Below are positions 18,568 to 52,361 of a stretch of 52,410 bases of DNA, one piece after another. Origin of the DNA: a virus (taxonomy: Duplodnaviria > Caudoviricetes); IMG/VR virus record IMGVR_UViG_3300048852_000035, positions 1 to 52,410 of that record; one strand, 5' to 3'. A model generated the notes under the pieces. The model was not told the origin of the DNA, made no database searches, and worked only from the letters and a program-made list of their open reading frames with translations. Position 1 is the stretch's first letter, and every line of letters starts with the position of its first letter. Both the position numbers and the translations under genes were made by a program.

Positions 18568-18568
18568 T

Positions 18569-28329: not shown

Positions 28330-28407
28330 TGCAGTCTCCAATCTGTGGTGGGGTGGTGAAATGGCAGGACGGTCCTGCCCTCCGCTTGCCGCGCGGCCCG
28401 CGGGTGA

Positions 28408-30290: not shown

Positions 30291-30298
30291 ACGGCCTC

Positions 30299-31951: not shown

Positions 31952-31958
31952 TCATCAC

Positions 31959-33350: not shown

Positions 33351-33471
33351 ATTCGTTTCCTCTGGATAGTTACGCCCGGCTCACACGTGGCCGAGCGTCC
33401 GTCGCAACTCATTTGTGCGCCCGGAAGGGTGTGGGATGGAGCCGGCGCCCCATCCCTTCACCCTTGTAGGG

Positions 33472-34862: not shown

Positions 34863-35266
34863 CGCAGCGACCATAGCCTTGGCTCCGGCAACTCCACCTC
34901 GTCGATCTCCACCGTGAGTTGGTTCGGCATTCCCGGCGCCTCCTCGAACTTCGCGACGATCCCCTGACGCACCCGCTCACCGTGTCTGCGCATTTCCTCG
35001 AGAGCAGCCTCGTGTCCGATGGTGCTCTCTTTCAGCGACCCGACCACATTCTCGTGGCAGGCCTCGAAACCGCGTCGGAACGCATCGTCGGCAACAAAGC
35101 GGACGGCATCGCGTGCGGCATCCAACGCGGCGTCGACGTCTATGCCTCCGGCATCGTCATCAAGACGGGCGATCATCGCAGCGAAGGCTCGGAGATATCT
35201 GTCGGTATCGCGCTCGCTGTCGACTAGGTGCGGGATGTTGGTCAGGTGATGCTCGAACAGGTTCAT
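34859..35266 (-). CDS. Hypothetical protein
   Basis: AAGGAG RBS; 135 aa. Confidence 0.75.
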   Translation of the reverse strand: MNLFEHHLTNIPHLVDSERDTDRYLRAFAAMIARLDDDAGGIDVDAALDAARDAVRFVADDAFRRGFEACHENVVGSLKESTIGHEAALEEMRRHGERVRQGIVAKFEEAPGMPNQLTVEIDEVELPEPRLWSLR

Positions 35267-35289
35267 CGCTTCTCCTTCCTATTCGGGGG

Positions 35290-35490
35290 GACGGCGTTCC
35301 CAGACGCCTCCCCCTCTGAAAGAGGGGCAATTGCTGGGAACGTGGGAATGCGTTTATTTTCAACAACTTAAGCCGTTCCCAAAAATCTTGGGAACGCTGG
35401 GAATGGGAACGGGAAACCACGTCTTTTCAATTACTTAGCGTTCCCATTCCCATGGGAACGACCCGTTCCCAGACGTTCCTGGGAACGGAT
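35290..35490. repeat. Iteron cluster, probable prophage replication origin
   Basis: About 13 GGGAA/TTCCC units in both orientations, hairpin CCCCTCT-GAA-AGAGGGG, two TTTCAA-N4-TTA IHF-like boxes; directly downstream of the primase-helicase. Confidence 0.75.
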
Positions 35491-35497
35491 TTAGCGG

Positions 35498-37816: not shown

Positions 37817-37994
37817 TAGCCGGCTGGAACGACGCGCAGTGCTGACCGCCTATATTCGGCGCAATGGTTCGTCTGGTGCCGTCAGGGAACTCGCGAAGAA
37901 GAAGGCCGTAGAGCCTGATGTCGGGCGATGGTTCTGGCGCCGCTGGAAGACGGCGGCCTTTCGACCGCCGATATTGACTGGATGACGGGATCCA

Positions 37995-38351
37995 TCACTG
38001 GCCGCTTGCCTGCCGTTCAATTTTTTCGATGACGGCTTGCCACACGAACTCCGCCGTTCGATGGTCCGCGAAGAACGCGTCGCCGACGTATCGAATGAGG
38101 CCGGACTTGGGCGGCGTCCCCTCGCCCCAGTACTCGACAAAACCAAAGCGTCTGCGGTCTCCCTTCGCGCCCTCGGTGAGTACAGCCTTTTCAGGAAACA
38201 GTGCGGGCGAGTGGTCAAGCAGGCGAGCGTCGTGGGGATAGCCGTCGAGCGTGTCTATGGCCAAGCCGAATCCGCGGACCCGGCTGGGGGCCGCCGCTTC
38301 GCGTTCTCGGATCAATCGAAACGCGCGGGGTTCGTGGGTGAATGTACGCAA
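37995..38351 (-). CDS. Early hypothetical protein, first gene of the leftward operon
   Basis: GAGGA RBS, TTG start; downstream of a strong leftward promoter. Confidence 0.65.
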   Translation of the reverse strand: MRTFTHEPRAFRLIREREAAAPSRVRGFGLAIDTLDGYPHDARLLDHSPALFPEKAVLTEGAKGDRRRFGFVEYWGEGTPPKSGLIRYVGDAFFADHRTAEFVWQAVIEKIERQASGQ

Positions 38352-38484
38352 AGGTCCTCCTCGCCGCCCGAAGGCGGTCGTGCTGTGTTGATCGGTGTGG
38401 TGGGTTGCTGGGGTTAAGTAACCTGGCTTGCTTCCCGAGCGTCAAGGGGTTGGGCTTTTTCTGCTGGCTGCTGCAGGTCTCGTG

Positions 38485-38537
38485 TTGCGACCAGCATAAT
38501 TCTTGTATATGCTATCTTTACAAATTTGTCAAGATAG
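38485..38537. promoter_or_regulatory. Genetic switch: overlapping opposed sigma70 promoters plus 26-bp operator palindrome
   Basis: Leftward TTGACA(38532-38527)-N17-TATACA(38509-38504); rightward TTGCGA(38485-38490)-N17-TATGCT(38508-38513); CTATCTTTACAAATTTGTCAAGATAG at 38512-38537. Confidence 0.78.
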
Positions 38538-38546
38538 GTTAAAAGG

Positions 38547-39062
38547 ATGAAAGAAGTAAAGAGAACGCGACTGGCGCAAATGATCATCAATGAACATATC
38601 CGAAGTGGCTTGACTGAGCGCGAACTGGCCACGCGCCACGGGTTTAGCCAGCAGGCGCTTCAGACATGGAAGAAGGGGGCGGTTCCGCGTCCAGTGATGT
38701 TTCCTGCTCTTGCCTCGTACCTGAATATATCGGTCGATCAGGTTGCCGAACTGGCGGAGGAGGCGAAGATTAGCTCAGGCAATACAAAGCTACCGGAACT
38801 CGGCGCTCCGGTGATGGGATCTGGCGCCGGAAACGCCATAAACATCGATAAATTCGCTAGCGGCTACGCAAAGCCGGCAGTTGGCGGCACCTACGCCGTA
38901 CGGGTCGACGGAAAACTGATGTGGGTGAACCCGCGCCTCGCCCCGCGCGACGGCAACACGGTGCTTCTGCGAACTGGATCCTCGGGTCGCCTCTCAACGT
39001 GGCCTTGTTCACTGCAGCAAGGCGAAGAGGCTCATGTCGTAACACTGGCTGAGTTGGTCTGA
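38547..39062 (+). CDS. CI-like repressor (Xre HTH + degenerate S24-like domain)
   Basis: GLTERELATRHGFSQQALQTWKKG..PRP; TYAVRVDG-KLMWVNP...PRDGNTVL. Confidence 0.8.
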   Translation: MKEVKRTRLAQMIINEHIRSGLTERELATRHGFSQQALQTWKKGAVPRPVMFPALASYLNISVDQVAELAEEAKISSGNTKLPELGAPVMGSGAGNAINIDKFASGYAKPAVGGTYAVRVDGKLMWVNPRLAPRDGNTVLLRTGSSGRLSTWPCSLQQGEEAHVVTLAELV

Positions 39063-39118
39063 GCGAGCAGTCGGAGTTTACACTTCACTCAATTTTCGAC
39101 GAAACCACAGGAGGATAA

Positions 39119-39292
39119 ATGACAAAGAATGCCGTCCAGGCACTACCCTGCAATGACCATCGGCAGGACATTTCCAGCGCTCACTCAGCATTCCTGGCTT
39201 TCGTCAGAGCCTTGGCCGTGAGGCAGGCGCGCATTGACGCCATGGTCGTGTCGGCAGCCAACGATAACGACCCCTCTAGGGCAGTGGCGTGA
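39119..39292 (+). CDS. 57-aa protein (not in ORF track) heading the peptidase-integrase operon
   Basis: AGGAGG RBS; MTKNAVQ...FLAFVRALAVRQAR...AANDN; GTGA overlap with next gene. Confidence 0.7.
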   Translation: MTKNAVQALPCNDHRQDISSAHSAFLAFVRALAVRQARIDAMVVSAANDNDPSRAVA

Positions 39293-39963
39293 TGCGCGAA
39301 ACGATCCGCATGTGCCCACCTGCGTCTGATCATATCTGGGAACACGTTGCACGGCACGAGGCCGCCCATGCTGTCGCCTATATCCTAGCCACCATCGACA
39401 TCTTCGGAAATCCGCACGGTGTCCACAGCTTACAGATCAGGCCCGATCGGACAAACATGGTTTTCGGTCGGAAGGGTCGGCCAGTCTTTTGTTGGGGTCT
39501 CTGCGAATCATCCGGCGTCTATAACGGTGTCGGCATGGGCATCGCTGAAGCGTACGTTCGGCAGAAGAGCGCGCTCATCCCCCAACGCATCAAAGCCGCC
39601 GAATGGGAAATCGTCTCCTGTATAGCTGGGCCGTTCGCGGATGTGTTTTCGCAAGGGTGCACGAGCTTGCATGCCATGCGATGGAACTCCCGATTGATGC
39701 GCGTCGGCACCAGTGACTTTGAGACAGCGGAAGCTGTATTCGCGGATCTGCGCATCCTTGCCGGAAGGCGGGCCGGATGGGTGAAGCTGCTTGAGCGTAC
39801 CCGCCGTCTGGTGATCGATCATTGGGACGCGATCGACGCCCTGGCTCATGCTCTTCTTAATAAGCATCGTCTTGAAGGTGATGAAGTCCTTGCCGTAATT
39901 GGACAGCATTCCCGAACCGTGACCGAAGCGGCACGAGCCGCCAACGACAATCGCCTACCATGA
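39289..39963 (+). CDS. HExxH zinc metallopeptidase (M41/FtsH-protease-domain-like, no ATPase)
   Basis: ARHEAAHAV, IAGPFA, TSDFE, HWDAIDALAHALL...LEGDEV. Confidence 0.8.
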   Translation: MMRETIRMCPPASDHIWEHVARHEAAHAVAYILATIDIFGNPHGVHSLQIRPDRTNMVFGRKGRPVFCWGLCESSGVYNGVGMGIAEAYVRQKSALIPQRIKAAEWEIVSCIAGPFADVFSQGCTSLHAMRWNSRLMRVGTSDFETAEAVFADLRILAGRRAGWVKLLERTRRLVIDHWDAIDALAHALLNKHRLEGDEVLAVIGQHSRTVTEAARAANDNRLP

Positions 39964-41561
39964 AGCGCGCCGTTATTTACGCCAGGTACTCCACCGACCT
40001 GCAAAACGATCAGTCAGTCGAAGACCAAATCCGACTTTGCAAGGCTCACGCTGAACGGCTGGGCCTTCAAGTCGTTCATGAATACTTCGATCGCGCAAAG
40101 TCCGGAGCGTCTATGTTCGGCCGACCTGGTTTGTCGAGCCTCATGCAGGCTGCCGAGCTAGGCTCATTCGACGTGCTCATCGCCGAGGCACCTGACCGCA
40201 TCTCCCGCGATATCGCCGACCTCGCCCACATCCACAAGACGCTTCGATTCCGCCAGGTCGAAATGAACTGCGTCAACGGCGGGCGCATGGATACCGTGCA
40301 AATTGGGATGTACGGCGTCGTCGGCCAGATGCAGAGGGAAGAGGGTGCGAAGAAGGTAAAGCGCGGCATGGTGGGTGTCGTGCGCTCTGGCCGCAATGCT
40401 GGCGGCAAGGCCTATGGCTACCGTCCTGTGCTTGGCAAGAAAGGTGAACTCGAAATCGTCGAGGAGGAAGCGACGACGGTGCGGAGAATATTCGAGCTCT
40501 ATGCCACCGGCATCTCCCCGCGCGCCATTGCCGCAACATTGAATGCTGATGGCATCCCTGCCCCGCGCGGGCTGCGCTGGAACGGCTCAACGATCAACGG
40601 CAACGGCCAGCGTGGCAACGGTATCCTGCGCAATCCGATCTACGCCGGCAGGCTGATCTGGAACCGCGTGCACATGGTCAAAGACCCGTCAACCGGCCGG
40701 CGCATCTCGCGCATCAATCCAGAAAGCGAATACGAAGAGATCGACGCGCCTCACCTTCGCATTGTCGACCAGTCGCTCTTCGACGCCGTACAGGTACGTA
40801 AAGAGGCGACGGGAGGCGCACGTGCCCGAGACGTGCCGAAGTCCAAGCGCTTGCTTTCCGGCCTGTTGCGCTGTGGCTGCTGTGGCGGCGGCATGGCGCT
40901 GATCGGCGTTGACCGCAGCGGCCCGCGGATTCAGTGCAGCACCTATCGGGAATCGCGAAGCTGCACAAACGGCGCTCGCTATTACATTGAGAAGCTCGAG
41001 CGCCAGGTGCTCGACAGCTTGCGCATCCAGTTTGCTGACACGGCCATCATCGACGAATACGTAAAGGCCTATCGCGAAGAACGTCGCCGAATTGAAGCCG
41101 AGGCACGCAGAAACCGGAGCACTTCCGAGAAATCTCTTGCCGACGCTAAGGCAGGTATCACGCGAATCGTCGAACGGATCGCCAAGGGCCTAATCGATGA
41201 CGAAGAGGCGGCATCAATGCTACAGCCACTGCGGCAAGAGCGAGAGCGGCTCGAGCGAGAGCTCGCAGCAAGTGAGGCGCCGTCGAACGTTATCGAGCTT
41301 CACCCGCAAGCCGTTAAGCGTTTCAAGGAAAACGTCGAGCATCTTGCCGACATCGTCGCAACAAAGACCGGCACGGTTGACGTTGGCGCGGCAAGCGCCT
41401 TCCGTCAGTTGGTGGCGGCAGTTATCGTTCACCCAAGGGAGAAAGGAGAGCCGTACACAATCCAAATAAAAGGATACTTGTCGAGCCTTATCGATTCCAC
41501 ACTGTCGGCTATTTCGTTGGTAGCGGAGGAGGGATTCGAACCCCCGACACAAGGATTATGA
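39960..41561 (+). CDS. Large serine recombinase (prophage integrase)
   Basis: YARYSTDLQ catalytic Ser, DRISR, ILRNPIYAG, Zn ribbon LLRCGCCG, coiled coil; ends inside the tRNA-derived repeat. Confidence 0.95.
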   Translation: MKRAVIYARYSTDLQNDQSVEDQIRLCKAHAERLGLQVVHEYFDRAKSGASMFGRPGLSSLMQAAELGSFDVLIAEAPDRISRDIADLAHIHKTLRFRQVEMNCVNGGRMDTVQIGMYGVVGQMQREEGAKKVKRGMVGVVRSGRNAGGKAYGYRPVLGKKGELEIVEEEATTVRRIFELYATGISPRAIAATLNADGIPAPRGLRWNGSTINGNGQRGNGILRNPIYAGRLIWNRVHMVKDPSTGRRISRINPESEYEEIDAPHLRIVDQSLFDAVQVRKEATGGARARDVPKSKRLLSGLLRCGCCGGGMALIGVDRSGPRIQCSTYRESRSCTNGARYYIEKLERQVLDSLRIQFADTAIIDEYVKAYREERRRIEAEARRNRSTSEKSLADAKAGITRIVERIAKGLIDDEEAASMLQPLRQERERLERELAASEAPSNVIELHPQAVKRFKENVEHLADIVATKTGTVDVGAASAFRQLVAAVIVHPREKGEPYTIQIKGYLSSLIDSTLSAISLVAEEGFEPPTQGL

Positions 41562-41565
41562 TTCC
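41516..41565. repeat. 50-bp direct repeat of the tRNA-Met 3' portion (satellite left att; includes the prophage right att core)
   Basis: GTTGGTAGCGGAGGAGGGATTCGAACCCCCGACACAAGGATTATGATTCC identical to 52283-52332. Confidence 0.97.
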
Positions 41566-41600
41566 CGTGTCAACCTTGTTTTTATTGGGCTTTTTGCATT

Positions 41601-41621
41601 TATGTCGCAGTTATGTCGCAA
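41601..41621. repeat. Integrase arm-type sites (TATGTCGCA x2)
   Basis: TATGTCGCAGTTATGTCGCAA; the same motif recurs at 52136-52156 and inverted at 52205-52223. Confidence 0.8.
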
Positions 41622-41647
41622 TGAGCCCTGCCTTGTAGCGCTAGCCT

Positions 41648-42886
41648 TTAGCCTAGAAGGGACCGCTCAGCAGCGGCTAGCTCGTCGGCATCGTCGCCGC
41701 GCGGGAAAAGGTGCCCGTAGGTGTCCAGCGTCATCTGAATAGAAGAGTGGCCCAGCCTTTCCTGCACCGACTTGACCGGCAGCTCTAGGCCGCCGTCAAC
41801 CTTTCGGTTGATGCACCACGAGGCAAAGAAGTGCCGGAGCGAGTGAAGGCCCGTGTACTTCGCCAGCATGACGGGTTTGCCGTTCTTGTCCAGTTCCTCT
41901 GAGGGAACCGAGACCCCTGCCCTGACACCAGCCGGGATCAGCGCCCGGTTGATGATGTTAGCGTGGCTTTCGATGTTGCCGTTCCCGTTGGGGAAGACGT
42001 AATGAAGCTCGCGAATGGGATTGCCGGCAGCATCGACCCGGCCGGTATCACGTCGCGGGCAACCAAGGCGCCATTCCCGGAGAGTGTTGATGACGAATGG
42101 CGGGATCGGAATTGTCCTCTCGCCCGCCTCCGTCTTCGGTCGCCCGATTTTGCCGTACTCGTCCGCTCGTTGGGTGACGCTAATCGAACGTCCCTCCAGA
42201 TCAACATCCTCCCAGCGCAGTCCGCGCAACTCCGAAGATCGCATACCGCTGAAGATCGCGGTTATCAGCAGCGGACGCCAGTGACCCATGCCGTCGAGCG
42301 CATTGATGATCGCGCGGACCTCGGCCGGCGCCGGGATATGCACGCCCACCTTGAGCTTGCCCTTGTGACGCTTCTCAGCCCGAGCCTCTTTTCCCTTTCG
42401 GCGCTGGCGCATGTCCCTGACTGGGTTCCGCGTTGCCAGCCCGCGTTCAACCGCATCGCCCAGGATACCGCCGAGTGACACGAGCACCTTCTTGATCATC
42501 GCGGCAGACCGGCCATTCTCCCTGAGCTTGTCCTCGAACTCCCGAATCAACGGCACCGACAGCTTGGAGACCAGCGTATCGCCGAGAAACTCCTCGATAT
42601 GAAATTTCAGATGACGCTTTCGCTGATCTATGGAGCTGCGCTCAAGGCCCTCCCCTTCGCCGGTTGCAATCCATAGCTCGGCGGCCTTCTTGACGGTAAC
42701 GCTATCGCGGTCGGCAACGTGAACGCCTTCCTTAACCTCCATATGTGCTTTGCTGGCGAAGGTGTCCGCGTCTTTCTTCTTCGCGAACGTCTTCTGGCGC
42801 TTTACCCCTTTGGTGTCGAAGTAAGTGACAATCCACGCCTCTTTCTGAACGCCGTGCCCAGTCCATGTGCGCTTACGTACCGACAT
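41648..42886 (-). CDS. Tyrosine integrase (satellite)
   Basis: SGMRSSE, RPKT, HSLRH, LGHSSIQMTLDTY catalytic residues. Confidence 0.95.
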   Translation of the reverse strand: MSVRKRTWTGHGVQKEAWIVTYFDTKGVKRQKTFAKKKDADTFASKAHMEVKEGVHVADRDSVTVKKAAELWIATGEGEGLERSSIDQRKRHLKFHIEEFLGDTLVSKLSVPLIREFEDKLRENGRSAAMIKKVLVSLGGILGDAVERGLATRNPVRDMRQRRKGKEARAEKRHKGKLKVGVHIPAPAEVRAIINALDGMGHWRPLLITAIFSGMRSSELRGLRWEDVDLEGRSISVTQRADEYGKIGRPKTEAGERTIPIPPFVINTLREWRLGCPRRDTGRVDAAGNPIRELHYVFPNGNGNIESHANIINRALIPAGVRAGVSVPSEELDKNGKPVMLAKYTGLHSLRHFFASWCINRKVDGGLELPVKSVQERLGHSSIQMTLDTYGHLFPRGDDADELAAAERSLLG

Positions 42887-42913
42887 GATCAGTTCCTCCC
42901 TCTCGGTTGCGCT

Positions 42914-43408
42914 TCATTCGTCGTCCTCGTCTAAACGGTCCTCCTCAATGGCCTGGAGCATGACCTGCACCATCTTGGCCCTCTCTTCCGCCTCTTTCCG
43001 GATTTCATCGGCTTCCTTGGTCTTGTCGGTCACCTTGCCGTCGGCCCGCAGGCGGTGCACCTGCTCCGTCAATGAGGTCACTTCAACCATGAGCGGCGTA
43101 AGCGCCTTGGTAAGATCGCCGAGAGCGAGAAGCGCGGCTTTTAAGGTCAGATCATGATCGAGTGGATCAGATGTAATCGCGTCGGTCCGGCTGAGAAGCT
43201 GCACGTACGCCTCTCGCAGCTGGTGATAGATGCCGTCGACCGGCGCATCGACCCGCAAGGCCAGTTGGGTTAACCGCCTCACGGCATCTGCCCGGGTTCC
43301 TACGCGGTTGTTGAAACGCCATGTGTCAATCGCTTCAAGCTCGCCGGGCGAGATCAGCATATGCAGGCGCTCGGTCTTCTTTGATTGGGCGGCGTCATCA
43401 TTCGTCAT
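42914..43408 (-). CDS. Ribbon-helix-helix-type regulator (probable satellite repressor)
   Basis: TERLHMLISPGELEAIDTWRFNNRVGTRADAVRRL. Confidence 0.75.
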   Translation of the reverse strand: MTNDDAAQSKKTERLHMLISPGELEAIDTWRFNNRVGTRADAVRRLTQLALRVDAPVDGIYHQLREAYVQLLSRTDAITSDPLDHDLTLKAALLALGDLTKALTPLMVEVTSLTEQVHRLRADGKVTDKTKEADEIRKEAEERAKMVQVMLQAIEEDRLDEDDE

Positions 43409-43441
43409 CTACGATCCCCTTTCTGTCCCTTCATGCACCTT

Positions 43442-43495
43442 ATGCACATATTGTTGTTGTGGGCAATCCGTGTCCGTCCTATGTTATATGTGCAT
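43442..43495. promoter_or_regulatory. Inverted-repeat operator between the divergent satellite regulators
   Basis: ATGCACATAT (43442-43451) / ATATGTGCAT (43486-43495). Confidence 0.65.
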
Positions 43496-43529
43496 GTGAC
43501 ACATTAACCGCATATAGAAGGGATCGAAG

Positions 43530-43736
43530 ATGACGCTCGACGAAGCACTTTCCCGCCCGACGCTTCCCGTCCCTGATGCAGGCCGCGTCTTCTATGGCCT
43601 GAGCCGGAACGGCAGCTATGAGGCGGCCAAGCGTGGCGACATTCCAACAATAAAAATCGGCCGCAAGATTATGGTGCCCGTTGCATTGATCGCAGACCGG
43701 CTAGGACTTCATCACAATCTAAGTGAGCAAAGTTGA
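43530..43736 (+). CDS. AlpA/excisionase-like DNA-binding protein
   Basis: GLSRNGSYEAAKRGDIPTIKIGRKIMVP. Confidence 0.85.
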   Translation: MTLDEALSRPTLPVPDAGRVFYGLSRNGSYEAAKRGDIPTIKIGRKIMVPVALIADRLGLHHNLSEQS

Positions 43737-43867
43737 TTGAGCCTGCCGCTGAAGTTTGCCGCGCGCCAGGCTCAGGCTCGATCACGATGGTGGGGGAAGT
43801 GAAAAGATAACCTGAGCTTTGGCTCGCGTCAATTTTGGCGGCGGTTTCCGCAAGGGAGATCGCACGA

Positions 43868-44395
43868 ATGACGAATTTCGCATCCTATCCCAATCTCGGC
43901 GGCTATCCTCGGCTGACGCAAAATCACTTGGATTGGCTTTGCGCGCAGGGCGTGTCGCTGTCGGCGTTGCGAGGTCCGCCGATGATCTTGCTCGCTGACG
44001 GGGTCCGGGCGGCTGATGGCTGCTTTGAGCACGATGCGGATGGTCAGCAATGGCTGGCTTTTCCTGAGCATGACGATGTCATCTACTGGCAGCCGCGATC
44101 CGGCGAGTTTGCGACATGGAACAATCGGCGCTTCGCGCTCGGAGAGGACGCGATTCACGCCGCAGCGACCTACTCGTTCGGCCACTGCCTTAACATCCTC
44201 GAAAGCCCGCTCGAATGGCTTCGGGCCAGTCGTGACGGGATCGTGATCGTCGATTGGGATCAAGCGTTCGACCGGCTCCGCGATGTCCAGCGCATCGCCG
44301 TCGTCGAAAGCCTTCTGAGTAAGTTGGAGCATCATTTACAGCCGCCGCGCCTACCGGAAATCTTCGTTTTGCCACGACGGGAGGCGGTGGCATGA
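43868..44395 (+). CDS. Hypothetical protein coupled to the helicase (possible degenerate primase-like fold)
   Basis: AGGGAG RBS; LESPLEWLRA..DGIVIVDW; ATGA overlap. Confidence 0.7.
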   Translation: MTNFASYPNLGGYPRLTQNHLDWLCAQGVSLSALRGPPMILLADGVRAADGCFEHDADGQQWLAFPEHDDVIYWQPRSGEFATWNNRRFALGEDAIHAAATYSFGHCLNILESPLEWLRASRDGIVIVDWDQAFDRLRDVQRIAVVESLLSKLEHHLQPPRLPEIFVLPRREAVA

Positions 44396-45528
44396 GCGGC
44401 GCCGCTTCCGCAATCGGAGACCCAATTCCCAAGCGGCAATACCGCCGCGCGCAAGAGCGTGCGAGGCGGAAATTTGCGCTCACCTTTCTTTCCGAGATCG
44501 TCGTCGACGATGCCGACCCGGAATTCTTGGTCGACGATCTGCTCCCGTTGCGCGGACTGGCGACGATCTATGGCCCACCCGGCTCGGCCAAGACATTCCT
44601 TGCCCTTGACCTTGCCCTTTCCGTTGCCGGCGGCCTGCCGTTCTTCGGCAAGCCGGTAAGCCAGGGCGGCGTTGTTTATATCGCCGCCGAGGCGGGTGAC
44701 GGGCTGAGAAAACGCGTCATCGCCGCCCGCGAAGATAAGGCCATACCGCCCGATATCGCGCCGTTCGCGATGATGGCATTGGCGCCCAATCTCGGCCCCA
44801 AGAGGAGCGAGGCCGCCCCGCTGATCGCCGACATGCAAGCGGAATGGCCCAGTGATGCCGGGCCGATCCGGCTCATCGTCATAGATACCTTGGCGCGCAC
44901 ACTGCGAGGCGACGAGAATTCCGCCGCCGACATGGGAGCCTTCGTCGCCAATGCCGCTGCCATCGCCGCCGCATTCAATTGCCTCGTGCTCGTCATTCAT
45001 CACAGCGGAAAGGATGCTGAGCGCGGGATGCGCGGATCGTCCAACCTAAACGGAGCGACCGATGCCGAATGGCAGATATCGAGCAAGGACGGCATCCGCA
45101 CGGTTTCTCTGCACAAGATGAAGGATGGAGAGCACGGCCTAGAGTGGTCCTTCCGGCTGGAAAAACGGCAGGTTTCGGGCAATTCCGGCAAGCGCCCCCG
45201 ATCCACGTGCGTCGTCGTTGCCGAAACCGAACCGAAACCTGTGGAGGGCAAGCCGAGGCGCGATCCGCCGAAGGGAGTGAGGAAGCTGGTTTGGGAGGCT
45301 GTCCTCGATGCGCTTGGCACCTATGGCGAGCTGATGCCGGTTTGCGAGGACTTGCCGCGCTGCAAGGGCGTGAACCGCAAGTATGTCCGGAAAAACGCTA
45401 TCTCGCGCGGCGTCGGCAACCCCGACAACCCGGATGGCCAACGCGCCCTGATCAGCAAGGAACTGGCCAATCTGAACGCCGATGGCTGGATCAAGCAATG
45501 GGAGGATTGGATATGGCTGCCGCACTGA
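44392..45528 (+). CDS. AAA_25 / RepA-family replicative helicase
   Basis: GPPGSAKT, YIAAE, IVIDTL, IHHSGKD, RGSS. Confidence 0.92.
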   Translation: MSGAASAIGDPIPKRQYRRAQERARRKFALTFLSEIVVDDADPEFLVDDLLPLRGLATIYGPPGSAKTFLALDLALSVAGGLPFFGKPVSQGGVVYIAAEAGDGLRKRVIAAREDKAIPPDIAPFAMMALAPNLGPKRSEAAPLIADMQAEWPSDAGPIRLIVIDTLARTLRGDENSAADMGAFVANAAAIAAAFNCLVLVIHHSGKDAERGMRGSSNLNGATDAEWQISSKDGIRTVSLHKMKDGEHGLEWSFRLEKRQVSGNSGKRPRSTCVVVAETEPKPVEGKPRRDPPKGVRKLVWEAVLDALGTYGELMPVCEDLPRCKGVNRKYVRKNAISRGVGNPDNPDGQRALISKELANLNADGWIKQWEDWIWLPH

Positions 45529-45690
45529 GCGAAACCCGCGAAACTTTGCTGAAACCTTCCCCGAAAGACGCGGGCGCAACGTCCCAGCCGCAGTACCACT
45601 CACCGAAACCTGGGGGGATGAAAACCTCCCCCCCTACGGGGGAGGTTTCACCCCGTTTCGGAGGTACGGAGGCGTTGCGGCGGTTTCGGG
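45529..45690. repeat. Iteron cluster, probable satellite origin
   Basis: GAAAC at 45531, 45540, 45551, 45605 and GTTTC at 45645, 45655, 45683 around the palindrome GAAAACCTCCCCC..GGGGGAGGTTTC (45620-45649). Confidence 0.7.
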
Positions 45691-45718
45691 GGGTTCAGGA
45701 AGAAGAGGAGAAAGGAAA

Positions 45719-46387
45719 GTGACCGACATGATGACCAAAGGTGAACGCGAGGACCTGCAACGCCTGATCCGACAACGTGAGAAGGTGCTGAAAAGCGCAG
45801 CCAAGCAGCGATCAACAGAACTGCTTGCCGACTTCGAAAACCAGATATCCGCGATGTACCAGTTCGACGACGACGAGGTTTGGGCAGCGGCCGAAAAGGC
45901 GGCAGCGGTAGAAGTTGAAAAGGCGCAACAGCGCGTGGCAGCCCGCTGCGCGGAACTCGGCATCCCCAAGCAATTCGCGCCCAGCCTCAATCTCTACTGG
46001 AGCGGACGCAGCTATCATAATGGCGTCAAGAAACGCCGTGATGAACTGCGCCTGGCGGCAAAAGCGCAGGTCGCCGCGCTGGAACAGAAGGCCGTTGTCG
46101 CTATCGAAACGGCATCCGTAGAGGCGCAAACGCAGGTCGCCGTCGCCGGCCTGACGAGTGAAGCAGCGCGCGCCTTCATGGCTAATCTCCCCGCCGTCGA
46201 TACCCTGATGCCGTCGCTGTCCTATCAAGAGATCGCGGGCGAAAGCGATACGCCGATAGTCGAGCAAATGCTGACGCCCAACGCCCTGCGGCAACGCCGA
46301 TTTCGGGAACGCCAAAAGGCGTTACGTAACGGGAGTGTAACACCTGAAAATGCTCAGGTTGATGATCTTCAGGAGGAAAAATCATGA
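45719..46387 (+). CDS. Helical hypothetical protein
   Basis: GAGGAGAAAGGA RBS; C-terminal NALRQRRFRERQK basic motif. Confidence 0.8.
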   Translation: MTDMMTKGEREDLQRLIRQREKVLKSAAKQRSTELLADFENQISAMYQFDDDEVWAAAEKAAAVEVEKAQQRVAARCAELGIPKQFAPSLNLYWSGRSYHNGVKKRRDELRLAAKAQVAALEQKAVVAIETASVEAQTQVAVAGLTSEAARAFMANLPAVDTLMPSLSYQEIAGESDTPIVEQMLTPNALRQRRFRERQKALRNGSVTPENAQVDDLQEEKS

Positions 46388-46647
46388 CCACCTTCAACGA
46401 GAGCCAGAACCGCATTCTCCTTGCCCTCGTCGAGCAGGCCGTCGAGGGAGCCCGTCGCAAAGGCAAGATGACCGAGGTAGACGCGCTGCTCGGCCTTCAA
46501 TTTTGCGTGGCGCTGAACAGCGAGGCGATAGTCGGCTCGCGACAGGCTGCAGCGTCATTGCGCGACATCGCTGACCAGATGGAACAACGCGGACTCGAGC
46601 CGCTGCGGCTCCCGAAGAAAAACATCGTGGCTGACGATGAGGCGTAA
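46384..46647 (+). CDS. Hypothetical protein
   Basis: AGGAGG RBS, ATGA overlap. Confidence 0.75.
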   Translation: MTTFNESQNRILLALVEQAVEGARRKGKMTEVDALLGLQFCVALNSEAIVGSRQAAASLRDIADQMEQRGLEPLRLPKKNIVADDEA

Positions 46648-46671
46648 CACCAGCGCGAAAGGAGGCCACCC

Positions 46672-46950
46672 ATGTCAAAGGAGCCAAAAATTTCATTGAC
46701 GGAAAAAGCGAAGCAAGTGGCGTGCGATGCGATCATCGAACGCGCCGTCGTGAAGATGGTCGTAGAGGCCGGCGCGCCGGTCTCGCTGGTGATCGACCGG
46801 CTGCTGACATATGCCGCCGGGCAGGCCGCGACATTGGAGGGATCAGCCGTCACGGCCGAGCATTTCCGGCGCTTCGCGGATCAGATCGAGAGCGGGCTGT
46901 TCTGGTCGATTACCGGTGAGGACAAGCCGAGCGGGGGGACGGCGAATTGA
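46672..46950 (+). CDS. Hypothetical protein
   Basis: AGGAGG RBS; 92 aa. Confidence 0.75.
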   Translation: MSKEPKISLTEKAKQVACDAIIERAVVKMVVEAGAPVSLVIDRLLTYAAGQAATLEGSAVTAEHFRRFADQIESGLFWSITGEDKPSGGTAN

Positions 46951-47123
46951 CCCCCACGGAAAACTTTCCTATCTTGTGGGTGGCTCGATTGTGCACGCGC
47001 CAGCGGCAGGACCGCGACGCAAAGCCGACGCGCCACTTCGATCAGCAGCGGCTGGCCCGCGCCCGAAGCAACCCAACGACGAGCGATTTGCGCTCGCGTG
47101 CTTTGACGCGCCCGAGGTGAGCC

Positions 47124-47801
47124 ATGAGCCATTTCTCGAAATTCGATCCGACCGCGATCCGACTCGCGCCAGCGCTCGACCTTGAGGTCAAGGCGGCCGG
47201 CGACGGGCTTATCGAAGGTTATGCGTCGACATTCGGGGGCAAGCCGGATCGTGCCGGCGATATCGTCGCCATGGGAGCCTTCGCCCGGACCCTCGCTGAG
47301 CATTCCCGCGAAGGCACGTCGCCGGCCATGTTGTGGAGCCATCAGATCGAGGCGCCAATCGGCAAGTGGACGGCGCTCCAAGAAGACCGTGACGGTCTGC
47401 ACGTCGCCGGCCGGATCAACCTCAAGACCACGCGCGGCCGGGAGGCGTTCGAGCATATTGCGGCCGGCGATGCCGGCGCTTTCAGCATCGGCTATTTGGT
47501 CCGCGAAGGCGGCAGGAAATATCTCGGCAACGGCGTTTTTTCCCTGACGGATGTCGACCTAGTCGAGATCAGCGTCGTCACCGTTCCCGCCAATCCACGC
47601 GCTCGGATCGCCGGCGTCAAAAGCCTTACCAACAAGGGCGAGCTTGTCGATCTTCTACATGATGCCGGCCTGGCAAAGGCCGCCGCAAAACAGATCGCCA
47701 ACGGCGGTTGGCCGGCGCTCTCCGGCGACGATACCCAGCAAAAAGCGGCGCGCCTCCTGGCCGCCATAGACGCCGCGACAGCGCGGTTAAGGAGCGAATG
47801 A
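47124..47801 (+). CDS. HK97-family prohead protease (satellite)
   Basis: EGYASTFG, MLWSH, PIGKW, FSIGY, EISVVTVPANP. Confidence 0.95.
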   Translation: MSHFSKFDPTAIRLAPALDLEVKAAGDGLIEGYASTFGGKPDRAGDIVAMGAFARTLAEHSREGTSPAMLWSHQIEAPIGKWTALQEDRDGLHVAGRINLKTTRGREAFEHIAAGDAGAFSIGYLVREGGRKYLGNGVFSLTDVDLVEISVVTVPANPRARIAGVKSLTNKGELVDLLHDAGLAKAAAKQIANGGWPALSGDDTQQKAARLLAAIDAATARLRSE

Positions 47802-47802
47802 C

Positions 47803-48999
47803 ATGACGTATTACGAGAAGCATTTGACCCGTTCCGCCGCCGCCCTCTTGGCCGCCGGTCAGCATCTCCGCCGCAAGGATGCCGGCGGCGCAGATGAAAT
47901 CTTTGAGCAGCTATCTCACAAGTTCGGGGAGCACGCGGCTACAGTCATGAAGAAGCTTGGCGAGGCTGACGTGAAAATGGCTGCGTTTGCCGAGCAGGTC
48001 GCGGAGATGGAGCAGCGGCACGCGCGCGGCGGTGGCGGCTTTCAGCCGGCGCAGCCCGACACGTGGGGTGAGCAGTTCACAAAGCATAAGGGTCTGGCGG
48101 CCTTCCGCGAGGAGCATAGCCGGCCCGGTCGCTTCCGCGTTGAAATGAAGGCCACCCTGACCAATGACCCTGCCTCCGGCGGCAGCCTGGGTGTCCCGAA
48201 GCGCGATCAGGTCAGCATGATGCCTCGCCGTCGCATGGCCGTGCGCGACCTCCTACCGGTCGTCAGCGTCTCGTCGAATGCCGTCGAATATCCTGCTCAG
48301 ACCGGACGGACGAACAACGCCGCACCGGTGGCCGAGGGCGCGGTCAAGCCCGAGTCGGCGCTGGCGTTTGAACTGCGGACGCTGCCTACGCAGGTGATCG
48401 CGCACTGGATTCCAGCCAGCCGACAGGTGCTTGAGGATGTGCCGCAACTGCGAGACATCATCGACGGTGAGCTTCGCTACGGCCTAGCCTTTGTCGAAGA
48501 GGGCCAACTTCTCTACGGTGACGGCAACGGCAGTAATCTCGACGGCATGGTGCCTAACGCCACGGCCTTTGCGGCGCCGTTCACGATCAGCAGTGCGACC
48601 ATGATCGATACGGTCGGCTTGGCGATCTTGCAGAATGCCTTGGCCGATTTCCCGGCGGACGGGATCGTCATGCATCCGTCGGACTGGATGCGGATACGCC
48701 TGTTGAAGGACGCGGACGGCAAATACATCCTCGGCGACCCGCAGGCGGTGATCACGCCCGCCTTGTTCGGATTGCCGGTTGTGGCTACGCAGGCGATGGC
48801 CGTCGACAAGTTCCTCGTCGGTAACTTTCAGGTGGCGGCGACGCTCTACGACCGCTGGGCGGCGCGGGTCGAGGTCAGCACCGAACACGCCGACTTCTTC
48901 GTCAGAAACCTCGTCGCAATCCTTGCTGAGGAAAGGATCGGCCTCGCCGTTAAGCAGCCGCTCGCTTTGACCTACGGCGATTTCGGCAACGTGACGTGA
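47803..48999 (+). CDS. Major capsid protein, HK97 gp5-like (satellite)
   Basis: VAEGAVKPES, IAHWIPASRQVLED, LLKDADGKYI, LFGLPVV, AILAEERIGLAV. Confidence 0.95.
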   Translation: MTYYEKHLTRSAAALLAAGQHLRRKDAGGADEIFEQLSHKFGEHAATVMKKLGEADVKMAAFAEQVAEMEQRHARGGGGFQPAQPDTWGEQFTKHKGLAAFREEHSRPGRFRVEMKATLTNDPASGGSLGVPKRDQVSMMPRRRMAVRDLLPVVSVSSNAVEYPAQTGRTNNAAPVAEGAVKPESALAFELRTLPTQVIAHWIPASRQVLEDVPQLRDIIDGELRYGLAFVEEGQLLYGDGNGSNLDGMVPNATAFAAPFTISSATMIDTVGLAILQNALADFPADGIVMHPSDWMRIRLLKDADGKYILGDPQAVITPALFGLPVVATQAMAVDKFLVGNFQVAATLYDRWAARVEVSTEHADFFVRNLVAILAEERIGLAVKQPLALTYGDFGNVT

Positions 49000-49592
49000 T
49001 TGCTACTTGAGCCATTTGAGCTACCGGAAACAGAGTCCATCGTGCTTCCCCTAGCTATTCCGCCCGCGAGGTAAAGCGTGATCATGGTCACAATCAGCAC
49101 AAGCATTACTGACTTGTAGAAAAGCTCGATCTTGCCGTCTGAATGCAGCTGTTTATCCTGACGAAATCTCTCGTGCCGGACGAGTAACCACGCCAGCCAG
49201 TTTACCGGCCATCTCGGCTTATATGGACTGACATCGCCGATAGCAGCACTCAATGACAACTCGGGTATGTCTGTGCTGTATTTGGTTTCGATCTTAATCG
49301 CGTGTTTGACGGACCCCGTAAGGAGTCGATGGTACCAGTAACGATCTATGAAGTAGAAAAGCCAAGTGGCGAAAAGCCCGAAGGCGGCTACGATGATGGC
49401 ATACTGAACCTTCATTCCGAGCAAATCGAGAGTGAGTTTTTTGTCAATTGTGAAGCCCATGGCCGCGAAGAAGGCCAATAGGATTGTTACAAACATCCCT
49501 CGAATTCGCATGCTTATTTCGTTGAAATGCCGCTGAACTTCAACAACGGACTTCCAAATCTCAATAATCTGATCTCGTTCTTCGTTTTGCAT
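48972..49592 (-). CDS. Three-TM membrane protein, partner of the HAD hydrolase
   Basis: Three hydrophobic segments; 5 bp downstream of the HAD gene. Confidence 0.8.
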   Translation of the reverse strand: MQNEERDQIIEIWKSVVEVQRHFNEISMRIRGMFVTILLAFFAAMGFTIDKKLTLDLLGMKVQYAIIVAAFGLFATWLFYFIDRYWYHRLLTGSVKHAIKIETKYSTDIPELSLSAAIGDVSPYKPRWPVNWLAWLLVRHERFRQDKQLHSDGKIELFYKSVMLVLIVTMITLYLAGGIARGSTMDSVSGSSNGSSSNHVTLPKSP

Positions 49593-49597
49593 TTTAT

Positions 49598-50482
49598 TTA
49601 TGCCCGCGCAGCAAAGTCGGCAAAGTCGAATAAATTCAGAATTTCTGAATACGTCTCTTCAAGCGTATACGTGGGATGAACGTGCTCGCGCTCCTTTATT
49701 CTCTGTTCCCGCTCAACCTCCTGCGGCGTCCAGTGCGTCACCTCTTGAAGAAGTTTATATTCCGGACGCTTATGCGCTTGCCCAAACTTGGCCCAAACGT
49801 CGTCAATGCCGCAATCAATTGCCATTGCAACGTCTTTCATCAGATTGTCGCCAACGTAGACGCAATCTGCCTTGCTGAGCCCGAGATTGCTAATGATCGT
49901 ATTCAGCACCACGGGGTCGGGTTTCTTCGAGCTGCGCGGCGTGAATTCTTGCTTCGTATATGTGAGCTCATATCGCTCGGCCGGGTACCTGCGGAAATCC
50001 TCTGGACCCAGACCTTCCGGCAATAGATGGTCCCGGGGGCAAAATACGAAATCGAGTACTCCATCTAAGCCTAATCGGCGGAGGCGATAGTTTGAATAGA
50101 ACGCCATCGATTCGGTGTAGCCAATAATCCTGGCCCCACGACCTTTGATCTTCAGCAGTGTCTCGGCCACAGTCGGGTAAAGTTTTAGATGCTCGCTGCG
50201 TTGCTCGCGGTAAATTTCAATCGCTCGAGCGAACACTTCGGTCGCCGGACGGCCGTCGAGAATGCGTTTCAGCGAAGGAAGTTCCTCGATCAAGAACGAA
50301 TACTCTGAGGTCCCGTGCGTTTGGTGTACTGCCGCAATTTCGGGGATAAGCGTCTCTCTGGATATGCCGCTGATCGCAGCGATCTCGTCCAGCATAGGAG
50401 AGAAACAATTTAACCAAAGCTCCACCCAGTCGAAGAGTGTGTTGTCCAAATCCGTGATCAGCGCGCGCTTTCTGGTTCGCAT
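49598..50482 (-). CDS. HAD-superfamily hydrolase
   Basis: Motif I DLDNT, motif II GYTES, motif III KPDP, motif IV GDNLMKD. Confidence 0.92.
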   Translation of the reverse strand: MRTRKRALITDLDNTLFDWVELWLNCFSPMLDEIAAISGISRETLIPEIAAVHQTHGTSEYSFLIEELPSLKRILDGRPATEVFARAIEIYREQRSEHLKLYPTVAETLLKIKGRGARIIGYTESMAFYSNYRLRRLGLDGVLDFVFCPRDHLLPEGLGPEDFRRYPAERYELTYTKQEFTPRSSKKPDPVVLNTIISNLGLSKADCVYVGDNLMKDVAMAIDCGIDDVWAKFGQAHKRPEYKLLQEVTHWTPQEVEREQRIKEREHVHPTYTLEETYSEILNLFDFADFAARA

Positions 50483-50604
50483 CCTACCCCTCAGTGTTCG
50501 GTCCGCCATTTGTCGATGCGCTTTGTAATGGAAACAGATCAAAAGTCCACGTCACGCGCGATAGAGTAACGGGGCGCCAGCGCACAAATTTGTACAAATG
50601 GTAC

Positions 50605-50700
50605 GCAGTGCGGGGGGGCGGCAAAATCTTGCCCTATCTATGCAGCGACGGACCCGCGCCGCCCTCACGCGGAGAATTTTTGGTTGGTTCCAAAAAACAG
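50605..50700 (+). other. cos-like packaging signal of the satellite
   Basis: G7 run (50612-50618), GGACCCGCG (50650-50658), then GAGAATTTTT just upstream of the TerS-like gene. Confidence 0.5.
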
Positions 50701-50724
50701 GGCAGGAGGTTTTTCCCTACCGCC

Positions 50725-51033
50725 ATGAAAATTACCCGAAGCAGAGGTCGGCCGCCGCATACCCCCAGCCTGATCGACCGCCGTGTCGTGGAGCTGTTGG
50801 CTTCAAAGGGAGTTCCGCAGGCGCAGATTTGCTCGGTTTTGGGTATCTCCGAGAAAACGCTGAGGCGTCGCTATCCCGAGCAGTTACACCGAGGCGCATC
50901 GAAGCTCGAAAGCGCTCTAGTCATGCATTTGTACCGCATTGCCTGCGGCATGGACAGGACCGCCATGCGAGCCATCGAGTTCATATTGAAGGCGCGTTTC
51001 GGTTGGAGCGAATTCGCGCCCCCGCGCCGCTAA
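50725..51033 (+). CDS. HTH protein resembling a terminase small subunit
   Basis: GRPPHTP...GVPQAQICSVLGISEKTLRRRY...AIEFILKARFGWSE. Confidence 0.65.
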   Translation: MKITRSRGRPPHTPSLIDRRVVELLASKGVPQAQICSVLGISEKTLRRRYPEQLHRGASKLESALVMHLYRIACGMDRTAMRAIEFILKARFGWSEFAPPRR

Positions 51034-51099
51034 TGCACCAACCGGCCTCGGCGAGCGTTGGGAACCACTGGGGTATTTCTCTGGTCACAGCCGCTCAAT

Positions 51100-51330
51100 G
51101 TCATGCTGGGTTTTTGGATAACCCGGCACCGTGCAGATTTTGCGAGCCCGACCGTTGCCTTTTGCGCCTGCCGCATCTGATCAAGCCGCCTTGTCGCCCG
51201 TATCCGAGTTTCGCCAGCCTCGGCGAGGGTTGGCATAATTGGGTTTTTCTGCATCCCGATTTCCGGGGGGCGCCCAGCCTTGCAAGCCCGCAAGGGTGGG
51301 ACGCGGGTTTTCGGCTAACCCCGCGTGCCC
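51100..51330 (-). pseudogene. Possible decayed phage gene fragment
   Basis: PTLAEAG and RIRATRRLDQMRQAQKATVGLAK resemble linkers of phage DNA-binding/methylase proteins; no intact gene. Confidence 0.35.
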
Positions 51331-51468
51331 CTGTTGAGTCCGACCCAAGCGCGGGCGCAACTACCCCGGTTTCTGGCGACCGCCTCTGGATAACCCGGTC
51401 GTCTCGACCGCAACGGTGAGAAAGAAAGACGTGCCAGCGATATATGACCGACCAGAGTTCCGCCTTGC

Positions 51469-51717
51469 TCATTCGTAGGCGATACCACGCTTGAAGAACC
51501 GGCGTACCCTCTCAGTGAGTGAATTAGGGTCGGGAACTAAGGGCCAGTTCCTTTGAAAGGGTTCTTTGTGCTTTTCCCATTCCTCGTCAGTCAGGGCTCG
51601 CCCCATTGTCTGTTCCGCTGCGGCGCGAGGCGTTTTCAGGCCGATGTATTTGGCCATGTAAATGATCCGCTGCACCACTTGATCTTGTTCGCTAGGTGAA
51701 CCCACGAAAGCCTCCAT
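51469..51717 (-). CDS. Hypothetical protein
   Basis: 82 aa from ATG 51717; protein-like GRALTDEEWEKHK. Confidence 0.5.
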   Translation of the reverse strand: MEAFVGSPSEQDQVVQRIIYMAKYIGLKTPRAAAEQTMGRALTDEEWEKHKEPFQRNWPLVPDPNSLTERVRRFFKRGIAYE

Positions 51718-52135
51718 CGATCTCAGGCTTTTTGTAGTTGCAACAGCTGAAAAATTCAATCGACCCGGAGGCTTTAAGCCCCGCAAGGAGCGGCCAGCGC
51801 TCCACGGCGCGGATGCTCGGGGTGAGTCACACGACAATCGGTGATGATTTGAGGAGCGGCAAAACGCTGCCAGCGCCCGAATCGAAGGCCCTGGGAAGCA
51901 AGCCCGCCGAGAATTTAAATGGCAATGATCTGCCGCCTGAGTAGTTTAAGGATAAGGAAGCCAACCCGGCAAAGCCCGCCAAGGGCAGACCTACAAGGCC
52001 GCTTCCCCAGCGCCTTCTGCCCCGGCTATACCCGCGAAGCGCGTCCTCGGGCTCCGGAGGCGGCAACGCGGGCCATCAGGACGGCTCTTTCCCAGGTGCA
52101 TTTCATGTTCTTACGGCGGGGTTTTGTGTGCCATC

Positions 52136-52223
52136 TATGTCGCAGTCTATGTCGCATGGACCCGCTGGCACTAAAAAGGACTCATTGGAAAACAAGGGTA
52201 TTTCTTGCGACATAACTGCGACA
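52136..52223. repeat. Integrase arm-type sites at the right end of the satellite
   Basis: TATGTCGCA at 52136-52144 and 52148-52156; TTGCGACATAACTGCGACA (52205-52223) is the exact reverse complement of 41603-41621. Confidence 0.8.
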
Positions 52224-52284
52224 AAGGCCCCGGAAAAACCGGAGCCAATCTCATCTAAGCCGCTGATATCGTTAGGGAATTTGT

Positions 52285-52361
52285 TGGTAGCGGAGGAGGG
52301 ATTCGAACCCCCGACACAAGGATTATGATTCCTCTGCTCTAACCTACTGAGCTACTCCGCC
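52285..52361 (-). tRNA. tRNA-Met(CAT), elongator type, 77 nt with encoded CCA
   Basis: GGCGGAGTAGCTCAGTAGGTTAGAGCAGAGGAATCATAATCCTTGTGTCGGGGGTTCGAATCCCTCCTCCGCTACCA. Confidence 0.96.

Follow-up and report, generated by a model that had tools for sequence, protein, structure and literature searches.

How does an integrated element of 10,767 nt that encodes its own major capsid protein (MCP), prohead protease and small terminase subunit (TerS), and no portal, motor or tail, move from one cell to another? The question is raised by positions 41513-52332 of the IMG/VR virus record IMGVR_UViG_3300048852_000035, a Caudoviricetes sequence of 52,410 bases that was analysed as the complete record and is called the window here; to the left of the element lies a complete prophage in tandem. 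Because genes for a head shell, its protease and TerS are present without any for portal, motor or tail, its spread most likely depends on parasitism of a helper phage. We consider it probable that it is an intact, helper-dependent satellite of the phage-inducible chromosomal island (PICI) kind, lodged in the tRNA-Met gene of a rhizobial host and forming a shell of its own. It is a genuine, well-preserved satellite, and it belongs to an alphaproteobacterial family that adds to a known kind of element and founds no new class.

Head genes, small terminase and borders

Three genes on the + strand of the element carry this reading:

47124..47801, + strand: HK97-family prohead serine protease (S78), 225 aa (95.5 bits; TIGR01543 109.6; His73 and Ser121 invariant)
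47803..48999, + strand: full-length HK97-type MCP, 398 aa, with N-terminal delta domain (PF05065 180 bits; TIGR01554 164.8 bits)
50725..51033, + strand: TerS, a 102-aa helix-turn-helix (HTH) protein (phrog_309 family matches; TerL synteny of phage homologues)

The MCP scores above the curated cut-offs of the HK97 family (TIGR01554 and PF05065) and aligns with HK97 gp5 over nearly its full length, the N-terminal delta domain included (E 1.6e-71). In it, K182, N369 and E376 are aligned to K169, N356 and E363 of HK97, which we take to be the cross-link (chainmail) residues. The maturation cut of HK97 (K103/S104) falls opposite A117/T118 (EMKA/TL) in the gp5 alignment, the same place as the EMK/AT site proposed in an earlier note on this DNA, with the cut itself one residue off. 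A family 3 encapsulin (NF041188) was considered and rejected, the MCP reaching 76.9 bits against a cut-off of 180. The protease has His73 and Ser121 invariant in 9 of 9 aligned proteases and, together with an MCP that keeps its delta domain, makes up what is by prediction a complete shell-forming pair. Both proteins were said to diverge clearly from those of the neighbouring prophage, and this is borne out: the two MCPs are not appreciably similar (best 19/55, E 0.008) and the two proteases are 27% identical over 177 aa.

The TerS-like gene of the earlier note proves to be a real gene, with its limits taken from the database gene call (50725-51033). Of its family, 15 of 17 members match the TerS family phrog_309 (best E 7.8e-15) and the other two match phrog_4102, another TerS family; each of the three phages inspected has the homologue immediately before its TerL and portal genes. 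An AlphaFold2 model of the protein (pLDDT 84.4) retrieved generic HTH domains only in Foldseek (best E 0.68); a sequence search of the PDB gave nothing useful, and the ESM Atlas returned just unnamed viral clusters. The satellite TerS and that of the neighbour are unrelated in sequence.

No family match to a portal, TerL, connector, tail or lysis gene was found among the 20 main open reading frames (ORFs) of the element, and 124 further stop-to-stop frames of at least 45 aa gave 0 PHROG matches at E<=0.001, as had been noted earlier for portal, TerL and neck. The capsid-hijack genes Sid, Psu and Delta and a P4-like alpha primase were likewise absent from the Pfam, PHROG and NCBIfam matches. 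The cos-like site that had been proposed was not confirmed: in blastn and blastn-short comparisons of satellite and prophage the longest shared match was 23 nt (91% identical, E 0.03), and it lies in coding sequence.

The borders of the element are marked by the following features:

41513..41565: attL, a pseudo 3' end of tRNA-Met (52/53 identical to 52280-52332), which doubles as the right border of the neighbouring prophage
52280..52332: attR, within tRNA-Met(CAT) 52285-52361(-), the right copy of the direct repeat
41601..41620, + strand: two direct arm-type sites TATGTCGCA (exact 9-mer matches)
52136..52225: four arm-type sites, two direct and two inverted (9-mer scan, including a one-mismatch copy at 52217(-))

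The two 53-nt direct repeats (identity 52/53) are spaced 10,767 nt apart, and the right copy consists of 5 nt plus the 3' 48 nt of the tRNA gene. The 9-mer TATGTCGCA has five exact copies in the 52.4-kb window (41601, 41612, 52136 and 52148 on the + strand, and 52206 inverted on the - strand), all of them inside the element and about 150 nt or less from the repeats, in what is, to judge from the letters, the layout typical of integrase arm sites. When one mismatch is allowed the count in the window is 13 with 9.1 expected, which is not significant, and since that total is not above chance it is the clustering of the exact copies that makes the evidence for arm sites. Intact attachment and arm sites, as the earlier note had described them, are thus found at both ends.

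Related islands and copies in other samples

Pattern scans with the MCP found relatives at 12 loci in 185,579 species genomes and at 4 in IMG/VR. For counts of gene context we used the 12 of these 16 loci whose MCP is 50% or more identical and whose surroundings can be read over 5 kb or more (L001-L008, L010, L013-L015), leaving out L009 (a 1.8-kb contig), L011 (41% identical, with no further annotation), L012 (last 79 MCP residues only) and L016 (a phage-type locus with a portal fragment). Portal and TerL are absent from 10 of the 12, in which protease and/or MCP sit in small islands with an integrase and replication genes. The remaining two islands, L005 and L010, abut a phage block of TerL, portal, protease and MCP, whose own MCP is 43-44% identical to the query. 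That the element is a decayed capsid-forming PICI (cf-PICI), which the earlier note had named as its refutation, was considered and rejected, with no portal or TerL belonging to the relatives themselves (none in 10 of 12, a separate phage block beside the other two).

Six members, the window element included, could be delimited by tRNA-derived repeats:

Window element: 10,767 nt, tRNA-Met
L002 element: 10,668 nt, tRNA-Thr
L007 element: 9,520 nt, tRNA-Val
L003 element: 9,497 nt, tRNA-Glu
L008 element: 10,870 nt, tRNA-Arg
L014 element: 10,943 nt, tRNA-Gln

These span 9,497-10,943 nt and occupy six different tRNA genes. One and the same architecture is found in three alphaproteobacterial orders, combined with differing integrases and with replication genes of four kinds (AAA_25, DUF5906, PrimPol-D5 and DUF1376), and TerS is detectable in four islands, from three families: phrog_309 in the window, phrog_83 in L004 and L013, and phrog_5601 in L007. 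True remnants also occur, one of them being L001, whose MCP lacks the first 44 residues and which has no protease.

In a maximum-likelihood tree of 22 MCP rows (omitting L009, L011 and L012 as too short, L017 as a duplicate of L001 and the neighbour MCP as too divergent), all 13 island-borne MCPs fall in one clade (99/94). The eight MCPs of the sister clade (99/98) come from four named phages, three loci beside a portal and one locus of unknown context; the L016 MCP is on a long branch. No member of the island clade seen here has a portal or TerL of its own. Among 50,697 phage records 1,025 match the MCP, none at 60% identity or more and the best 25 of the 1,025 at 41-49%. A sample of 401 alphaproteobacterial genomes gave an MCP match at E<=1e-80 in two, one of them the query's own, at a threshold that was too strict.

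Several relatives carry further genes. A tape-measure homologue stands directly after the capsid gene in L008 (11687-14318), L014 (6272-8281) and L005 (11274-13844), and falls in phrog_17300 (E down to 7e-118), as does the tape measure of the prophage in the window; L008 adds a Neck1/tail-completion homologue (phrog_5), and the delimited elements with a tape measure still measure about 10.9 kb. A tape measure encoded by a satellite is unusual. The satellite-type MCP islands that stand against a phage block (L010, 5235-18120; L005, 1541-16415), in L010 with the integrase abutting TerL, may be satellites embedded in their own helper prophage. L010 also has repeats of 188, 82 and 52 nt, 3.74 kb apart, around HNH and TerS genes. 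Cargo in L007, from Tsuneonella, comprises a ProQ/FinO-domain gene and an Mrr restriction endonuclease (7993-8343 and 11294-12382). In L006, a 10.35-kb contig of a metagenome-assembled genome without an integrase on it, protease and MCP are accompanied by ParA, ribbon-helix-helix (RHH) antitoxin-like and NusG-like genes; the family may here take a plasmid-like or episomal form.

Comparison of the assembled contigs of four public runs with window positions 36000-52410 gave copies of the element in two other organisms. Organism A has it with 59 differences in 9.5 kb, in the same tRNA-Met site and between the same bounding repeats, with other DNA in place of 51041-52128. Its depth is zero over the prophage, so that here the satellite occurs without the neighbour, and the 48-nt piece of the repeat has a depth of 99.4 versus 49.4, as expected with both att copies present. 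Among the 40 listed of the 59 differences, 35 are coding, and their split into 19 synonymous and 16 nonsynonymous changes is consistent with purifying selection. In organism B an 11,005-nt contig carries no more of the element than its core, 43730-48992, with 186 differences (identity about 96.5%) and between other flanking sequences; the tRNA-Met of this organism is joined straight to the chromosomal flank, which makes this an empty site.

Remaining genes of the element and the neighbouring prophage

Left of the head genes are those for integration, regulation and replication, together with several short ORFs; a variable region closes the element on the right:

41648..42886, - strand: tyrosine integrase, 412 aa (PF00589 57.3 bits; phrog_1 E 7.2e-66)
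42914..43408, - strand: ORF of 164 aa, its product probably an RHH-type repressor that ends in a coiled coil (weak match of residues 24-51 to the transcriptional repressor family phrog_4738, E 1.6e-3)
43392..43546: control region between divergent genes, containing an inverted repeat of 27 nt (arms 43392-43418 and 43520-43546; repeat scan)
43530..43736, + strand: small HTH protein, AlpA/excisionase-like, 68 aa (HTH_17 21.2 bits; phrog_1864 E 1.4e-5; position like alpA in PICIs)
43835..44395, + strand: 186-aa ORF upstream of the helicase (no family match; G+C at third codon positions, GC3, 0.68)
44392..45528, + strand: AAA_25 (RepA/RecA-type) replicative helicase, 378 aa (PF13481 129 bits; phrog_2850; C-terminal part of the DNA polymerase/primase phrog_906)
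45482..46387, + strand: coiled-coil ORF, 301 aa as listed (no match; start at Met83/84, 45728/45731, possible)
46384..46647, + strand: 87-aa ORF (GC3 0.75; no family match)
46672..46950, + strand: protein of 92 aa with three helices (its gene conserved immediately before that of the protease in L003, L004, L008 and Sinorhizobium genomes)
51034..52127: variable right-hand region with weak coding signal (other DNA in its place in the organism A copy)

The integrase and helicase named in the earlier note are both confirmed by their family matches (57.3 and 129 bits). For the helicase, it was the helicase part of phrog_906 that AAA_25 matched, and no primase domain was found in the gene. The RHH/AlpA switch fared less evenly: the 164-aa ORF and the AlpA-like gene are in place and divergently transcribed, and the family matches of both are weak (E 1.6e-3 and 21.2 bits). 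The 27-nt inverted repeat between them is a putative operator. In L008 an Arc-domain gene takes the position of the 164-aa ORF, with no similarity between the two detectable by sequence comparison. The 301-aa coiled-coil ORF had no family match and no usable match in the ESM Atlas.

For the 92-aa protein we found 15 homologues, none with a named function; its AlphaFold2 model (pLDDT 84.8) had nothing at E<=0.001 in Foldseek searches of PDB and BFVD, and the best hit of a PDB profile search was at E 0.17. The Logan contigs that encode five of its homologues (P0007, P0008, P0013, P0015 and P0016) are about as long as the element itself, at 9.6-11.2 kb. The att repeats probably cause this during assembly, and it is not proof of free circles, since elsewhere the element assembles as a contig of its own bounded by these repeats.

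Between the capsid and small-terminase genes, a patch of low G+C (48972-50542) holds two genes of cargo:

48972..49592, - strand: membrane protein of the Hydrolase-TM anti-phage system (PADLOC PDLC03009, E 7.4e-31)
49598..50542, - strand: HAD-type hydrolase of the same system (PADLOC PDLC03008, E 3.5e-87; Pfam HAD; local G+C 0.49)

The two are adjacent and both PADLOC profiles are matched, and the pair is a predicted HAD-hydrolase plus transmembrane anti-phage system of the kind described by Rousset et al. (2022). A pair of HAD-like hydrolase and transmembrane protein is known from a hotspot in P4 satellites, where it is reported to inhibit T7, and anti-phage cargo is described as typical of satellites (PMC9122126). 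Soil and rhizosphere Alphaproteobacteria here join the hosts whose satellites carry such cargo.

The rest of the window is taken up by the neighbour:

115..41529: complete HK97-like siphovirus prophage, in tandem at the same tRNA end (gene content; tRNA-end copies)

It has genes for HNH, TerS, TerL, portal, protease, MCP, adaptor, head closure and Neck1, followed by those for tail terminator, tail tube, tape measure, distal tail, fibre, endolysin, spanin and a serine integrase. On the left it is bordered by 13 nt of the tRNA end (115-127) and on the right by the same core at 41517-41529, inside the left repeat of the satellite; these shared tRNA-end borders put prophage and satellite in tandem at one tRNA end with two types of recombinase. 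With this third tRNA-end copy the prophage measures about 41.4 kb (41,402), and the size ratio of 0.26 (10,767/41,402) given in the earlier note stands. The ORF of its large serine recombinase (39960-41561) overlaps the left att of the satellite by 49 nt, its last 16 codons being tRNA-derived. At 5539-6516 the prophage has a homologue of ATP-dependent DNA ligase (phrog_114, E 8.8e-44).

By its position the neighbour is a candidate helper, and no more is claimed for it. The earlier note had made it the helper, which is unproven, with a near-identical satellite present in another organism that lacks the prophage. The extra virion genes of the relatives belong to the same PHROGs as those of the neighbour-type prophage: TerS phrog_5601, tape measure phrog_17300, phrog_2134 and Neck1 phrog_5.

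Proposed life cycle, rival readings and known systems

If the element is a helper-dependent satellite, a helper siphovirus would lift its repression, and the island would be excised and replicated. Its MCP and protease would then form satellite-specific proheads around the portal of the helper, and these would probably be small (T=3 or T=4), since six members with quite different genes are all 9.5-10.9 kb long. The satellite TerS would steer the helper TerL to satellite DNA, helper connectors and tails would finish the particle, and helper lysis would free it. A shell of its own on a borrowed portal is what we infer from the gene content, and the narrow size range in spite of differing genes would be the best indirect argument that monomers are packaged in a small head. 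In a bolder form, to which we give somewhat less than even weight, there is a lineage of alphaproteobacterial satellites of about 10 kb that make a cross-linked, reduced HK97 shell entirely from satellite protein, use the portal and motor of the helper with a TerS of their own, and in some members replace the tape measure and neck of the helper. Such a lineage would genuinely bridge classical PICIs, which use the helper shell, and cf-PICIs, which have their own shell, portal and motor.

Several points weigh against a satellite that assembles its own shell in this way. The probable source sample yields the element as a contig by itself (10,777 nt) with a depth of 85.3 versus 85.8 for the prophage, and thus without a sign of excess copies; its excision, replication and packaging are predicted from its genes, the runs compared being assembled contigs. 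A cos or pac site was not located in the element, and repeat and tandem-repeat scans for the origin that the earlier note had claimed gave no iteron array, just weak two-copy repeats at 46057-46232. The HTH_17 match of the 68-aa gene (21.2 bits) is under the Pfam cut-off of 27, and the RHH assignment of the 164-aa ORF is also under curated cut-offs. A fit with the portal and terminase of the neighbour is unsupported, because the MCP and TerS of the two are unrelated. The link between MCP clade and gene context is partly built in, as the relatives were found by their likeness to the query MCP. In EcCICFT073, which has putative capsid and head-decoration proteins yet was reported to have all its packaged DNA phage-sized, lambda still failed to form plaques after deletion of the gene for the capsid homologue or for head decoration (PMC6092414), so that the capsid gene of a satellite need not build a small shell.

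These last results also speak for a reading in which capsid and protease serve mainly for interference, as a decoy or as a redirector of capsid size of the Ccm type, and the DNA travels in helper capsids, perhaps as concatemers (4 x 10.77 = 43.1 kb). There are precedents for each part: Ccm of SaPIbov5 depends on the capsid protein of the helper (PMC6893505), EcCICFT073 yields full-size capsids despite its capsid homologue (PMC6092414), and marine satellites are described as packaged in full-size heads as concatemers (PMC9618062), while four copies of the present element (43.1 kb) would match the 41.4 kb of the neighbour. We nevertheless judge this unlikely. A full-length MCP with its own scaffolding domain, a protease and intact cross-linking residues exceeds what a decoy needs, the lack of usable similarity between the MCPs makes co-assembly with the neighbour improbable, and the tight range of 9.5-10.9 kb favours monomers in a small head.

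Less probable still is a decaying prophage or cf-PICI remnant in which head genes survive with no function in transfer. The family does contain true remnants (L001, with its N-terminally truncated MCP and no protease, and L012, with the last 79 MCP residues), and phiRv1 is stated to be without evidence of particle production (PMC12268328). In the window element, however, att repeats and arm sites are intact, and integrase, helicase, protease, MCP, TerS and the defence pair match their profiles over nearly the full length; the architecture recurs in three alphaproteobacterial orders with different integrases and replication genes, and no clade member seen here has a portal or TerL of its own; the site is polymorphic for presence and absence, and synonymous change is in excess. 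We give very little credence to the idea that the element does without a helper terminase, whether as a portal-less 'twilight-zone' HK97 mini-virus with an autonomous life or as a compartment of the encapsulin type. Small genomes with integrase, RepA and MCP and without portal, terminase and tail have been described, with both a satellite and a non-canonical lifestyle proposed for them (PMC13669383), and the MCP has its sub-threshold match to family 3 encapsulins (76.9 bits versus 180). Against it, a TerS with phage homologues beside TerL and portal points to terminase-driven packaging, the prohead protease and chainmail residues are hallmarks of a phage head that undergoes maturation, and no encapsulin cargo gene was seen in the element.

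What a full-length satellite capsid protein does in elements without a portal is a question that the published cases raise as well. This family offers a natural series in non-pathogenic, genetically tractable rhizobia, with a conserved core of protease and MCP, interchangeable integrases, replication genes and TerS, and a tight size, and it makes a question testable: does an HK97 shell nucleate on a foreign portal, and does it thereby set the genome size of the satellite?

Among known systems, the element agrees by gene content with the PICI model of SatelliteFinder, described as comprising an integrase, an AlpA/MerR/Stl regulator, a primase-replicase, terS and a gene for capsid morphogenesis (a homologue of the capsid protein, more frequent in Proteobacteria), forbidding portal, connector, tail and holin, and with a serine protease 'occasionally' present (PMC10085698). 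Compared with this description, the element has the integrase, the capsid homologue, TerS and the absence of portal, connector, tail and holin; its candidate for the regulator is the 68-aa HTH_17 protein in the right position (21.2 bits, cut-off 27), and its candidate for the primase-replicase is the AAA_25 helicase (129 bits), which corresponds to the helicase part of phrog_906. The suggestion of a possibly undescribed class in the earlier note is therefore not supported, the gene set being that of the published PICI model (PMC10085698) and of phiRv1 (PMC12268328), and HK97 mini-genomes with integrase and RepA/helicase and without portal or terminase having been published in 2026 (PMC13669383). 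Putative PICIs are listed for 'Sinorizhobium' in the SatelliteFinder study (PMC10085698), and beyond that one-word mention the literature consulted gave no dedicated description of such elements in Alphaproteobacteria or rhizobia.

The closest likeness among Gram-negative PICIs is to EcCICFT073 and PmCI172, elements of about 10 kb described with an integrase, an AlpA-type regulator, replication genes, a capsid homologue and TerS, no portal, connector, tail or holin, accessory or defence genes, and sometimes a protease (PMC10085698, PMC6092414). By description, the present element differs from these in its alphaproteobacterial host, its AAA_25 helicase and its full-length HK97 MCP with S78 protease; the Gram-negative PICIs of the 2018 study are all reported from Gammaproteobacteria (PMC6092414). 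PmCI172 has an MCP homologue and small heads (PMC6092414; PMC6893505), and the small heads are not assigned to a gene. The phiRv1 and phiRv2 elements of Mycobacterium tuberculosis are classed as PICI by SatelliteFinder (PMC10085698). By its gene list phiRv1 is 10 kb long with integrase, excisionase, primase, terminase, prohead protease and capsid, the same set with no other virion genes; it differs in its actinobacterial host, in its site in a biotin operon instead of a tRNA gene, and in that no particle production is stated to be known for it (PMC12268328).

With the cf-PICI EcCIEDL933 the element shares a capsid protein and protease of the satellite's own and, by prediction, tails that are stolen, whereas cf-PICIs are described as also encoding portal, head-tail adaptor and connector, and TerL (PMC10085698), none of which is in the window element. 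SaPIbov5 likewise has a satellite HK97-fold capsid homologue, Ccm, in an element without portal or TerL, which acts with the helper capsid protein and is described without a protease of its own (PMC6893505), while the MCP found here has the delta domain, a protease and the chainmail residues. The marine virion-encapsidated integrative mobile elements (VEIMEs) are described as without capsid genes (PMC9618062). Finally, the twilight-zone HK97 mini-genomes of Aguilar et al. (2026) resemble the element in size (<11.6 kb), integrase, RepA/helicase, regulators, an HK97-fold MCP and the absence of portal and tail, and differ in that they are described with no terminase gene, mainly from the human gut, with a mean of 8.75 kb and with encapsulin-like MCPs plus a scaffold protein (PMC13669383); the element in the window has TerS, an S78 protease and a classical HK97 MCP. 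A satellite hypothesis is raised for those portal-less mini-genomes too (PMC13669383), and the island described here has a gene layout that is known elsewhere and has been little studied in this bacterial group.

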